Source: a virus
Lineage: Duplodnaviria; Heunggongvirae; Uroviricota; Caudoviricetes
Reading direction: 5' to 3' (one strand)
Length of the DNA: 4,110 nt
IMG/VR virus record: IMGVR_UViG_2541047932_000006
Span: 1 to 4,110 of that record
Below the pieces are notes generated by a model. The model searched no databases, had not been told where the DNA came from, and saw only the letters and a program-made list of their open reading frames with translations. The translations under genes were made by a program, and so were the position numbers. Positions 1 through 4,110 of the stretch are shown piece by piece (position 1 is the first letter of the stretch; each line of letters opens with the position of its first letter).

Positions 1-648
1 TTTGAGCCGCAGTCAGGCACCCTGAACAGCGTTATTCCACCGGCAGTGCAGCACCTGACGGTGGAGGTGAGCGCGGCTGACGGTCAGTATCTGGCACAGG
101 CGAAATGGGACACGCCGAGGGTGGTGAAGGGCGTGCGCTTCAGTCTGCGCCTGACCAGTGGAAGCGGTGAGAACAGCCGCCTGCTGACCACCGCCATCAC
201 TGCCGATACGGAGCACCGTTTCAGTGGCCTGCCTCTCGGGGAATACACCCTGACGGTCAGGGCGATTAACAGCTATGGCCAGCAGGGCGAACCCGCCACC
301 ACCACCTTCCGGATTAACGCACCGGCAGCGCCTGCCGGTGTTGAACTGACGCCGGGGTATTTTCAGATAACGGCAGTCCCGAAACTGACATTTATGACCC
401 GACGGTGCAGTTTGAGTTCTGGTTTTCGGAGGCAAAAATTGCAGACGCCGCACAGGTGGAAACCTCTGCCCGTTATCTGGGGACCGGCAGTCAGTGGAGT
501 GTATCCGGCCCGCACATTAAGCCCGGGAAGGATTTCTGGTTTTACGTGCGCAGCGTCAACCTGGTGGGGAAATCTGCGTTTGTGGAAGTCAGCGGGCAGC
601 CCAGCAATGATGCAGAAGGGTATCTGGGGCTGTTTCGGGAAAAAATAG
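1..648 (+). CDS. J: Tail-tip host-specificity protein J, internal portion (5'-truncated by the window edge). Frame 1 is open from nt 1 to the stop at 646-648, but J-like sequence in this frame ends at about 390; the remainder to 648 is out-of-frame read-through.
   Basis: Frame 1 has no stop from nt 1. Its translation ([39 protein letters not shown]...[16 protein letters not shown]) matches my recollection of the lambda J region upstream of the C-terminal receptor-binding part. The J-like sequence then continues in frame 3 ([13 protein letters not shown]...), so the frame-1 tail is probably not real protein. Confidence 0.6.
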
Positions 649-1661
649 GAAAACTGCATCTGGCTCAGGGGCTGTGGGAGCTGATAGACAACAGCCAGCT
701 TGCGGATGAGATGGCGGAGATGAAGACCACCATCACCGAAACCCGCAATGAAATCACACAGACGGTCAGTAAAACGCTGGAGGACCAGAGCGCCACCATA
801 CAGCAGATACAGCGCGTGCAGAAGGACACAAATGATGACCTTGCTGCACTTTACATGCTGAAGGTACAGAAAACAAAAAATGGCATACCCTATGTTGCCG
901 GTATTGGAGCGGGGATTGAGGATACTGATGGCCAGCCCCTGAGCAACATACTGCTGCTGGCTGACCGTATTGCGATGATTAACCCGGAGGACGGCAACAC
1001 CACGCCGTTATTTGTGGCGCAGGGGAATCAGCTGTTCATGAACGATGTGTTCCTGAAGCGGCTGTTTGCGGTGAGTATCACCTCGTCCGGCAATCCCCCG
1101 ACGTTTTCCCTGACGCCGGAGGGCAGGCTGACCGCAAGAAATGCTGATATCAGCGGTAACGTGAATGCGAATTCCGGGACGCTCAACAACGTCACGATTA
1201 ACGAGAACTGTCGGGTTCTGGGAAAACTGTCCGCGAACCAGATTGAAGGCGATCTCGTTAAAACAGTGGGCAAAGCTTTCCCCCGGGATTCCCGTGCACC
1301 GGAGCGGTGGCCATCAGGGACCATTACCGTCAGGGTTTATGACGATCAGCCGTTTGACCGGCAAATTGTTATTCCGGCGGTGGCATTCAGCGGCGCTAAA
1401 CATGAGAGAGAGCATACTGATATTTACTCCTCATGCCGTCTGATAGTGCGGAAAAACGGTGCTGAAATTTATAACCGTACCGCGCTGGATAATACGCTGA
1501 TTTACAGTGGCGTTATTGATATGCCTGCCGGTCATGGTCACATGACGCTGGAGTTTTCGGTGTCAGCATGGCTGGTAAATAACTGGTATCCCACAGCAAG
1601 TATCAGCGATCTGCTGGTTGTGGTGATGAAAAAATCCACAGCAGGTATCAGTATCAGCTGA
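405..1661 (+). CDS. J: Tail-tip host-specificity protein J, C-terminal portion. Frame 3 is open from 345; J-like translation starts at about 393 ([13 protein letters not shown]...), and 405 is only the first in-frame ATG.
   Basis: The 418-aa ORF from the track contains motifs I recall from the lambda J C-terminal region ([63 protein letters not shown], ...KK...GIS at the end). It lies directly upstream of lom, as in lambda. Stop TGA at 1659-1661. Confidence 0.85.
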
Positions 1662-1677
1662 ATTTTATAACCCAGAA

Positions 1678-1706
1678 CGGGCGTCAGAAATGACGCCTTT
1701 TTTATT
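1678..1706 (+). terminator. Rho-independent terminator downstream of J
   Basis: GC-rich hairpin GGCGTCA(1680-1686) / loop GAAA / TGACGCC(1691-1697), followed directly by TTTTTTATT (1698-1706). Confidence 0.7.
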
Positions 1707-1727
1707 GCAGAAAAGCGAGAGGTAATT

Positions 1728-2327
1728 ATGCGTAAACTTTATGCAGCCATTTTGTCCGCAGCCATTTGTCTGACCGTATCCGGTGCGCCTGCATGGGCGT
1801 CTGAGCAGCAGGCCACGCTGAGCGCGGGGTATCTTCATGCCCGGACGAACGCTCCCGGTAGCGATAATCTTAACGGGATTAACGTGAAATACCGTTATGA
1901 GTTTACGGACACACTGGGGATGGTGACGTCGTTCAGCTATGCAGGAGACAGGAATCGCCAGCTGACCCATTACAGCGATACCCGCTGGCATGAAGATTCC
2001 GTTCGTAACCGCTGGTTCAGCGTAATGGCGGGGCCGTCTGTGCGCGTGAATGAATGGTTCAGCGCGTATGCGATGGCGGGTGTGGCTTACAGCCGTGTGT
2101 CGACTTTCTCCGGGGATTATCTCCGCGTAACTGACAACAAGGGGAAAACGCACGACGTGCTGACCGGAAGTGATGACGGTCGCCACAGCGACACCTCTCT
2201 GGCGTGGGGAGCTGGCGTGCAGTTTAACCCGACCGAATCCGTGGCCATTGATATTGCTTATGAAGGCTCCGGCAGTGGCGACTGGCGCACTGACGGTTTC
2301 ATCGTGGGTGTCGGTTATAAATTCTGA
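1728..2327 (+). CDS. lom: Lom outer-membrane beta-barrel protein (Ail/Lom/OmpX family), a lysogenic-conversion 'moron'
   Basis: 199-aa ORF. RBS GAGAGG at 1717-1722, 5 nt before the ATG. N-terminal signal peptide MRKLYAAILSAAICLTVSGAPAWA|SE. C-terminal aromatic beta-signal ...VGVGYKF. The protein is near-identical to lambda Lom as I recall it. Position between J and stf matches lambda. Confidence 0.92.
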   Translation: MRKLYAAILSAAICLTVSGAPAWASEQQATLSAGYLHARTNAPGSDNLNGINVKYRYEFTDTLGMVTSFSYAGDRNRQLTHYSDTRWHEDSVRNRWFSVMAGPSVRVNEWFSAYAMAGVAYSRVSTFSGDYLRVTDNKGKTHDVLTGSDDGRHSDTSLAWGAGVQFNPTESVAIDIAYEGSGSGDWRTDGFIVGVGYKF

Positions 2328-2353
2328 TTAGCCAGGTAACACAGTGTTATGAC

Positions 2354-2381
2354 AGTCCGCCGGTTCAGGCGGGCTTTTTTG
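2354..2381 (+). terminator. Rho-independent terminator downstream of lom
   Basis: Imperfect hairpin AGTCCGCC(2354-2361) / loop GGTTCA / GGCGGGCT(2368-2375) with one mismatch, then a run of six T (2375-2380). Confidence 0.65.
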
Positions 2382-2391
2382 TGAGGTGAAT

Positions 2392-3705
2392 ATGGCAGTA
2401 AAGATTTCAGGTGTACTGAAAGACGGCACAGGAAAACCGGTACAGAACTGCACAATCCAGCTGAAAGCAAAACGTAACAGTACCACGGTGGTGGTGAACA
2501 CGGTGGCCTCTGAAAATCCGGATGAAGCCGGTCGTTACAGCATGGACGTTGAGTACGGTCAGTACAGCGTCATTCTGTTGGTGGAGGGCTTCCCGCCGTC
2601 ACATGCCGGGACCATCACCGTGTATGAAGATTCTCAACCGGGGACGCTGAATGATTTTCTCGGTGCCATGTCGGAGGATGACGTCCGTCCGGAGGCACTG
2701 CGTCGTTTTGAACTGATGGTGGAAGAAGCAGCGCGTCACGCAGAGGAGGCGAAGAAGAATGCCGGAGAAGCAGAGACGTCCGCGAGGAATGCCGGCATAT
2801 CAGCCAGTAAGGCGGAAGCGAGCGCGGCAAATGCTGACACTTCAGCAGGGGATGCATCGGAGTCAGCCCGGCAGGCGGCAGAAAGTGCAGCCGCTGCAAA
2901 GCAGTCAGAGGAGGCGTCCTCGTCCTCGGCCTCTGCGGCCGCTCAAAAAGCCAGTGAGTCATCACAAAGTGCAGCAGAAGCTGAATTGTCAAGAAAGACG
3001 GCAGAAAGTGCAGCCGGTAATGCAGCCAGGGATGCAACGACCGCAGCAGAAAAAGCCCGGGAGTCAGCAGAAAGCGCACAGTCAGCGGAACAAAGCAGGA
3101 TAGCGGCGGAAGAAGCCGTAAACCGAATCCCCACCGTGGTGGGACCTCCCGGGCCAAAGGGGGAACAGGGGCCCGCGGGTCCTCAGGGGCCGAAGGGTGA
3201 TAAGGGAGAGCGCGGAGACACCGGCCCTGTCGGGGCAACCGGCGAACGGGGACCGGCAGGTGATGCTGGTCCGGCAGGCCCGCAGGGGCCGAAAGGTGAC
3301 AGGGGAGAGCGGGGAGAGACCGGTCTGACAGGAAGTACAGGTCCACAGGGTCCAAAGGGAGACACCGGGGCAGCAGGCCCGGCAGGCCCACAGGGACCGA
3401 AAGGAGAAACAGGTGTGGCTGGCCCGGTAGGGGCAACCGGACCTCAGGGACCAAAGGGCGCCCCGGGGGAGACGCAAATACGGTTCCGTCTGGGGCCGGG
3501 AAACATTATTGAGACAAACAGCAATGGCTGGTTCCCGGATACAGATGGCGCACTCATCACCGGACTGACCTTTCTTGACCCCAAAGATGCCACACGGGTT
3601 CAGGGTTTTTTTCAGCATTTGCAGGTCAGGTTTGGTGACGGGCCGTGGCAGGATGTTAAGGGGCTGGATGAAGTGGGCAGTGATACAGGCAGAACAGGAG
3701 AATGA
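2392..3705 (+). CDS. stf: Side tail fibre protein (Stf-like): lambda-type N-terminal domain, Ala/Ser/Glu-rich shaft, collagen-like triple-helix repeat region, short C-terminal tip
   Basis: ATG at 2392 preceded by GAGG (2383-2386); the track's GTG at 2386 is an in-frame alternative. The N-terminus [37 protein letters not shown]...[47 protein letters not shown] matches my recollection of the lambda Stf (orf-401) N-terminus. Residues ~251-361 are 37 consecutive G-X-Y triplets. Stop TGA at 3703-3705. Confidence 0.88.
2722..3129 (+). repeat. Low-complexity Ala/Ser/Glu-rich repetitive shaft segment within stf, with internal DNA direct repeats
   Basis: Translation [133 protein letters not shown] perfect 18-bp direct repeat CGGCAGAAAGTGCAGCCG occurs at 2876-2893 and 2999-3016 (123 bp = 41 codons apart), with a related copy near 3065-3080. 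Confidence 0.7.
3142..3474 (+). repeat. Collagen-like G-X-Y repeat region: 37 uninterrupted triplets, 333 nt, inside stf
   Basis: Translation [111 protein letters not shown] has Gly at every third residue without exception. GPQGPKG recurs five times. Larger units [11 protein letters not shown](K/R)GERG(D/E)TG recur at 3169-3225 and 3268-3324. Confidence 0.9.
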
Positions 3706-3706
3706 C

Positions 3707-3976
3707 ATGAACATACTAAAAAAACTTATGCAGCGTCTGTGCGGTTGCGGAAAGCATGATGGCCGAGAACACGGGCAGTCGCTTACAGTACAACTGCGAC
3801 TGGGGCCGGCAGACATCCTGGAGTCAGATGAGAATGGTATTATCCCGGAGCAGGACAGGGTAATCACGCAGGTGGTGATACTGGATGCGGATAAAAAGCA
3901 GATACAGTGTGTGGTAAGACCGCTGCAAATCCTGCGTGCTGACGGGAGGTGGGAAAATATTGGCGGAATGAAATAG
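3707..3976 (+). CDS. Small hypothetical protein (89 aa) whose C-terminal ~60 residues are paralogous to the Stf C-terminal tip domain; function unknown (candidate fibre-tip accessory protein, chaperone or alternative tip)
   Basis: ATG at 3707 lies 1 nt after the stf stop (TGAcATG). RBS AGGAG at 3695-3699, 7 nt upstream. Translation MNILKKLMQRLCGCGKHDGREHGQSLTVQLRLGPADILESDENGIIPEQDRVITQVVILDADKKQIQCVVRPLQILRADGRWENIGGMK. It is followed by a strong terminator. The track's longer ORF from 3575 is an out-of-frame overlap with the stf 3' end and is unlikely to be real. Confidence 0.7.
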   Translation: MNILKKLMQRLCGCGKHDGREHGQSLTVQLRLGPADILESDENGIIPEQDRVITQVVILDADKKQIQCVVRPLQILRADGRWENIGGMK

Positions 3977-3990
3977 CCGACAGCTTCACA

Positions 3991-4017
3991 AAACCGGAGT
4001 CCGGCTCCGGTTTTTTG
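3991..4017 (+). terminator. Rho-independent terminator ending the stf / small-ORF transcription unit
   Basis: Perfect 6-bp GC-rich stem CCGGAG(3994-3999) / loop TCCGG / CTCCGG(4005-4010), followed by TTTTTTG (4011-4017). Confidence 0.8.
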
Positions 4018-4030
4018 TTGGTTAGATGTA

Positions 4031-4070
4031 ATCTGACAGATACCTGTATAAATAACCGGTAACTGTCAGG
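4031..4070. promoter_or_regulatory. Imperfect inverted repeat (candidate protein-binding site or operator) in an AT-rich intergenic stretch
   Basis: tCTGACAGaTACC (4032-4044) and GGTAaCTGTCAGg (4058-4070) are reverse complements with two mismatches, flanking an AT-rich centre TGTATAAATAACC. Function not determinable from sequence. Confidence 0.3.
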
Positions 4071-4110
4071 TCAGAGCTAATACAGGTAATTATATTATAA
4101 TCACGAGCGC

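Follow-up and report, generated by a model that had tools for sequence, protein, structure and literature searches.

A probable heritable single-base deletion in the lambda-type J gene of an Escherichia coli prophage

The window, which is the whole 4,110-nucleotide stretch of DNA analysed here, carried the 3′ 1.66 kb of a lambda-type gpJ gene, and a genuine, heritable loss of one C at codon Thr734 (ACC ATT to AC ATT) has very probably inactivated this gene. The window J showed no other lesion, and the deletion was present at the same exact position in three sequences from two independent genome projects.

Source and gene layout of the window

An exact look-up of a 418-residue open reading frame (ORF) of the window was used to identify its source. 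The only record and the only scaffold matched was KE702272.1 of GCA_000461135.1, the draft assembly of E. coli UMEA 3292-1. The window corresponds to scaffold positions 1-4110 and is followed by 1,036 N (positions 4111-5146 of the fetched locus, L007), so that it represents one entire 4,110-bp contig whose left edge is the end of the scaffold. Because the scaffold ends there, J is truncated at codon 605 and its 5′ 1,812 nt (nucleotides 1-1812 of the gene), where the N-terminal hub domains FNIII-A_GpJ and Phage-tail_3 would be encoded, lie off the contig. On the right-hand side, the sequence beyond the N run matched 141-bp tandem repeats that belong, in O145:H28 and O157:H7 relatives, to a tccP2/EspF-like effector gene, and these tandem repeats explain the gap. 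Past the end of the prophage, we found a tRNA-Ser gene (anticodon tga) at L007 6104-6191 and the hyaABCDEF operon from L007 6618. The tccP2 prophage of O145:H28 strain RM12581 (L003) has the same chromosomal neighbourhood. The features of the window are as follows.

1-389, plus strand: in-frame 5′ part of the J fragment; frame 1, codons 605-734 (the last incomplete), with Ig-like domain 1 (PF24421) and the first ~20 residues of domain 2 (PF24489)
382-393, plus strand: multi-allelic patch holding the lesion; window allele AAACTGAC-ATT
389-390, plus strand: deletion site; one C of ACC (Thr734) is gone between these bases, which places the downstream gene in the -1 frame (window frame 3)
391-648, plus strand: out-of-frame tail of the predicted truncated product; 85 codons ending ...GCFGKK, stop TAG at 646-648
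390-1661, plus strand: stranded 3′ part of J; frame 3, codons 735-1157, open throughout, with the rest of Ig-like domain 2, PF09327 and PF12421; stop TGA at 1659-1661
405-1661, plus strand: 418-residue ORF from GTG 405, GenBank "hypothetical protein G960_01029" (ERB38622.1); gene-calling by-product of the frameshift, with no Shine-Dalgarno-like motif upstream
1728-2327, plus strand: lom (Ail/Lom outer-membrane beta-barrel); intact, 199 residues, lambda-type synteny
2392-3705, plus strand: side-tail-fibre-like gene (prophage tail fiber N-terminal domain protein); intact, 437 residues, collagen-like G-X-Y repeats
3707-3976, plus strand: phage tail fiber C-terminal domain protein; intact, 89 residues, PF06820

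The order of J, lom, the stf-like gene and the fibre C-terminal gene was that of the tail module in lambda and in annotated relatives. The side-fibre-like protein contained a long collagen-like G-X-Y run after an Ala/Ser/Glu-rich stretch, especially at ~3133-3470. Additionally, terminator-like GC hairpins followed by T runs were located at 1679-1698, 2354-2375 and 3990-4014, directly 3′ of J, lom and the fibre C-terminal gene, respectively; over the whole window, seven such hairpins were counted against a shuffle mean of 4.2, which is little above expectation.

Position of the break in J

The original prediction had placed J in two reading frames separated by the apparent loss of one nucleotide, and all of its coordinates proved right. 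Frame 1 was open from nucleotide 1 to the TAG at 646-648 and encoded J-like sequence up to the ACA at 388-390, followed by 85 unrelated codons. Frame 3 opened after the TGA at 342-344 and encoded J-like sequence from 390/393 to the TGA at 1659-1661. A tblastn comparison with lambda J had been named as a check on this arrangement; we ran it against the window with five intact J proteins, namely lambda J and four prophage or phage J proteins. Each of the five gave one high-scoring pair (HSP) in frame +1 and one in frame +3, which abutted at J residues ~723-735 (~734), and the best pairs (E = 4e-75 and E = 0) were far past chance. The +3 HSP of lambda J covered lambda residues 725-1131 with E = 3e-127, and the +1 HSP of O145:H28 RM12581 J showed 97.7% identity with E = 4e-75.

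Comparison with seven relatives revealed that one missing base at the break was the sole indel over 1,661 nt of J coding sequence. In the alignment, the sequence of intact genes sharing the local allele is CCG AAA CTG ACC ATT TAT GAC (P-K-L-T-I-Y-D), whereas the window reads CTG AC ATT TAT. On this alignment, codon Thr734 (of 1,157 in J) has lost one of its two Cs, the gap falling between 389 and 390. The original prediction was thus correct in that a single inserted base restores one continuous J frame, but it had assigned the loss to the T run at 391-393. Since its proposed repair (aca-Ntt-tat with N = A) gives the same T-I-Y-D, this error of one nucleotide leaves the conclusion unchanged.

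Restoring the C gave an unbroken run of 553 codons ending at the normal stop; 546 of these were identical to those of the closest intact J (strain 05_3471), and comparison of the repaired gene with intact relatives revealed no further lesion. A lambda-type gpJ gene is one uninterrupted ORF of ~1,130-1,160 codons; in the window we found a frame change at 389/390 and a premature stop at 646-648, and window J is therefore filed as a gpJ pseudogene and not as a functional member. Synonymous and non-synonymous differences numbered 5 and 0 upstream of the break and 11 and 7 downstream of it, although these counts are few and confounded by mosaic patches.

The local allele and its intact relatives

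The lesion lies inside a 12-nt patch (window 382-393) with at least four alleles, encoding PKLTI, PRLAV, PVLAV and, in lambda, HLAV, which differ at up to 9 of the 12 bases. The intact alleles read AAACTGACCATT (PKLTI), CGTCTTGCGGTG (PRLAV), GTGCTGGCGGTG (PVLAV) and, in lambda, CATCTTGCCGTT (HLAV). Outside the patch, genes with the PKLTI and PRLAV alleles match exactly for over 40 nt in each direction. When the window sequence (AAACTGAC-ATT) was set against the nearest full-length relatives (CGTCTTGCGGTG), the difference seemed more complex; a short query at the site resolved it into the loss of a single base.

The same 121-nt context with one extra base was present in 83 complete E. coli genome records and 35 phage records (99.2% identity, 122 versus 121 nt). 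None of these 83 and 35 records had the single-C deletion of the window, and the deletion allele was found in none of 5,426 complete genomes. The intact PKLTI-allele genes include those of strain 05_3471 (WP_419772538.1), which showed 98.5% nucleotide identity to the window over 1,700 nt, of O55:H7 CB9615 (WP_000514730.1) and of the Stx2a phage JNE082642, whose 121-nt contexts are otherwise the same as that of the window. In contrast to the AC ATT of the window, the PKLTI-allele gpJ genes of E. coli lambdoid prophages and Stx phages read ACC ATT and form a single ORF of 1,157-1,158 codons. A recombination junction or chimeric join was considered as the cause of the break and rejected, as these intact genes share both the flanks and the patch allele and have one more C. 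At the level of reads, the two forms of the junction would be ACATTTATGAC, with a single C, and ACCATTTATGAC, with two. An exact 38-mer across the junction gave 0 matches among species-representative genome contigs and 0 among metagenome contigs; neither collection yielded the window's own sequence, whose source assembly is evidently not among the contigs scanned, and this search was therefore uninformative.

Further copies of the deletion

Independent copies were sought by exact-sequence look-up of the neighbouring Lom and tail-fibre proteins, and the junction was read in every locus fetched. This approach revealed the same single-C deletion in two further sequences. The first is a paralogous J at the end of scaffold KE702283.1 in the same assembly (L011), and the second is contig JOQE01000101.1 (L021) of GCA_000713935.1, which comes from another strain, E. 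coli 3-475-03_S3_C2, and another project. The paralogue L011 extends back to the Phage-tail_3 domain, and its J, when repaired, could be read through 829 codons with 98.1% identity to intact J and no other lesion. Between L021 and L011, there were 4 mismatches over 3,666 nt. Contig L021 stops at window 3113, just short of the side-fibre G-X-Y repeats.

The window and L011 were identical over 1-612 and 1001-3644 and showed 46 mismatches and 2 gaps in total; 36 substitutions all fell within 613-1000, and the two sequences diverged from 3645 onward. This mosaic pattern of a 36-substitution patch and a divergent right end suggests recombination between resident prophages. Locus L011 (1-8535) holds a second J-lom-fibre module, whose Lom and 437-residue fibre proteins are identical to those of the window and which adjoins NleG, SopA-like and M85-peptidase effector genes. 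Three 2024-era assemblies (L018-L020) contained the tccP2/EspF-adjacent module as in the window, with one mismatch over 601-4110 and an intact junction; their J allele left of ~600 differs from that of the window and is intact. Since these loci match the window to the right of ~600 but not to the left, window J looks recombinant, with a crossover near 601-612.

The same deletion in a non-identical paralogue and in an independent assembly makes a one-off sequencing error unlikely, and the reading of CC in more than 115 assemblies with the same context excludes a systematic context error. From these comparisons, we infer that the deletion allele is real and inherited. Of the readings offered originally (pseudogene, sequencing error or genuine inactivation), the recurrence in L011 and L021, at a CC pair and not in a long homopolymer, favours genuine inactivation or a pseudogene over sequencing error. 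In terms of method, exact-sequence look-up of neighbouring proteins can decide between error and mutation without reads.

Other routes to the junction yielded less. Among five contigs with the 329-residue downstream ORF (P0020), four begin 1-102 nt upstream of that ORF, short of the junction. A protein search with the junction and its out-of-frame tail as the query gave four matches (P0001-P0004), in none of which the junction PKLT|FMTRRCS was present; all four were J frameshifts elsewhere. These J products enter the same wrong frame after shifts at other nearby positions, for example in E. coli DEC8A after ...SARYLG, and apparent breaks in the same part of J recur across public assemblies. 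The literature on strains UMEA 3292-1 and 3-475-03_S3_C2 was searched, and nothing relevant was found.

Which copy in UMEA 3292-1 carries the deletion

Whether the deletion belongs to the window's own copy is not wholly settled, since window 1-612 is a repeat common to the paralogue. It is conceivable, though rather unlikely, that the allele is real only in the L011-type paralogue and that the window copy is intact, in which case the assembler would have written the shared 612-nt repeat once, collapsing C and CC, and placed it at both scaffold ends. Assemblers of that era may flag a difference between the copies of a repeat as ambiguous and write out the first choice only. The window begins at a scaffold end, its first 612 nt are identical to L011, and the lesion lies 389 nt from that end. 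Furthermore, L018-L020, with the same tccP2-adjacent module, have an intact junction, and the deletion lies ~190 nt to the left of the linked bases at 578-600. L021 is the single independent assembly covering the junction.

However, the window has the deletion-type bases at 578-600, unlike L018-L020, and these bases lie within 13-35 nt of the variants at 613-635 that mark this copy, a spacing at which single reads must join them. There was also neither a contig break nor an ambiguity at 389, and an indel between copies of equal coverage more often breaks a contig than vanishes silently. We therefore favour the reading in which both resident prophages carry the heritable one-C deletion. The lesion would be recent, as suggested by the lack of secondary decay, and it may have spread between the two prophages of UMEA 3292-1 by recombination or descent, given that the two copies do not differ over the flanking 612 nt.

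Domains lost and predicted consequence

Pfam analysis of the two frame products revealed the domain order Ig_J, Ig_J_second, Phage_Tail_Tip and Ig_GpJ_C, the last being the receptor-binding domain, with E-values from 2e-42 to 2e-23. The break lies at residue 734, ~20 residues into the second Ig-like domain PF24489 (714-814), and both the tail-tip fibre domain PF09327 (871-998) and the C-terminal receptor-binding domain PF12421 (1027-1157) are located downstream of it. [quoted passage not shown]

A ribosome that begins at the J start codon would make residues 1-733 plus Thr, followed by the 85 out-of-frame codons up to the TAG at 646-648. The predicted product of ~819 residues, 734 of them native, would keep the hub domains and the first Ig-like domain, and it would be devoid of most of the second Ig-like/FNIII domain, the helical shaft, the straight fibre and the C-terminal receptor-binding domain. 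With those domains missing, truncated J could not form the central tail fibre or bind the receptor. The other 423 codons lack their own ribosome-binding site and are probably not expressed. Loss of J function and adsorption is strongly suggested by the domain map together with the structural work on lambda, and the functional consequence drawn in the original prediction appears reasonable, since the break removes the tip-fibre and receptor-binding domains. The remainder of the prophage lies off the contig, and other J genes in this genome might complement the defect.

Alternative readings of the allele

Two prophages of one genome and a second strain share the frameshift allele, which shows no secondary decay over 2.5 kb, and the allele might for this reason be retained as useful and not just tolerated. 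We consider this highly improbable. If it were so, the fibre-less truncated J could give rise to defective, non-adsorbing particles or tail-like structures; a low-level -1 shift at ACA-UUU could supply a small dose of full-length J; or the stranded C-terminal receptor-binding fragment could be expressed and mask the receptor against superinfection.

Even less credence can be given to the production of full-length J by -1 ribosomal frameshifting or transcriptional slippage at the site, or to a division of J into two halves that work as separate proteins. The lambda tail genes G and GT use -1 frameshifting, and T5-type phages split tail-tip functions among separate proteins. The G/GT shift likewise belongs to a lambda-type tail cluster, and -1 is the direction that window J would need; a -1 shift after ACA gives exactly T-I-Y-D, and the allele persists in three sequences without secondary decay. 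Against recoding, no X XXY YYZ heptamer is present at CUG ACA UUU AUG, and the only two in the overlap zone, at 522 and 567, would be reached 44-59 codons after entry into the wrong frame. No homopolymer at the site exceeds 3 nt, and the minimum free energy of the downstream RNA was -24 kcal/mol against a shuffle mean of -24.8 (z = 0.24), so that there was no extra stability. Moreover, every other carrier of the local allele in the complete-genome and phage records has J in one frame, which means that the two-frame layout is not conserved. A functional split is further opposed by the position of the break inside a folded Ig-like domain and by the first frame-3 start, GTG 405, which is without a Shine-Dalgarno-like motif; translational coupling at this start is impossible because the upstream ORF ends 240 nt past it. 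Recoding and a deliberate split were accordingly rejected: the break has no slippery heptamer, stimulatory structure or usable start, its two-frame layout is not conserved in homologues, and it does not belong to the class of lambda G/GT.

A pure sequencing or assembly error, with no DNA molecule carrying the deletion, is just as hard to credit: the assembly is a short-read draft, the site lies near a contig end in a repeated prophage region and the allele is in no complete genome, but in place of the single assembly and long homopolymer of an artefact, we found the same deletion in two non-identical copies and in another strain's assembly from another project, at what is a CC pair in more than 115 further assemblies with this local sequence.

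Comparison with known prophages

To place the heritable deletion among known systems, we compared window J with lambda gpJ (NP_040600.1), the tip attachment and host specificity protein that forms the central tail fibre. Over the part present, the domain order was the same, with ~49% amino-acid identity; unlike in lambda, the window frame is interrupted at the equivalent of residue 734 and the 5′ 1.8 kb is off the contig. At ~49% identity, the receptor specificity of window J is probably different from that of lambda J.

Of the 11 lambdoid prophages of O157 Sakai, 4 have a host-specificity fault: the function is defective in three (Sp12, Sp14 and Sp15) and missing from Sp6 (PMC2669165 Table 1). 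Sakai prophages with such defects can still be mobilised with the help of others (PMC2669165). The gpJ of the second-closest relative, AAF93_RS12600 of strain 2014C-3050 (L010 3189-6662), is annotated as a pseudogene with an "internal stop". The expectation that J defects are common in cryptic prophages was borne out for E. coli. In 2014C-3050 and in Sp12, Sp14 and Sp15, as in the window, the same gene is inactivated by a small lesion while the tail module is otherwise conserved; the lesion and its position differ.

The window J is an ordinary prophage pseudogene of a type that is routine in multi-prophage E. coli genomes and already known in kind, and the significance of the finding beyond annotation is little. 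The present analysis adds the identity of the lost base, the setting of the lesion in a draft contig, a further broken copy in this genome and an independent strain that carries the allele. Should both copies of J be defective, the effector prophages (tccP2/EspF-like, NleG and SopA-like) would need the tail tip of another prophage for transmission, a dependence already described for the pool of defective prophages in O157 Sakai. In GenBank, both stranded 3′ parts of J are called "hypothetical protein" and not pseudogene, namely G960_01029 (418 residues, window 405-1661) and G960_01721 (343 residues, L011 1460-2491). These two entries are fragments of frameshifted gpJ and should carry a pseudogene flag. 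Related prophages also have annotated lesions of their own, including a frameshifted C40 peptidase (gpK-like) in RM12581 (L004 801-1543) and a frameshifted espJ in F3113 (L002 9440-10094).
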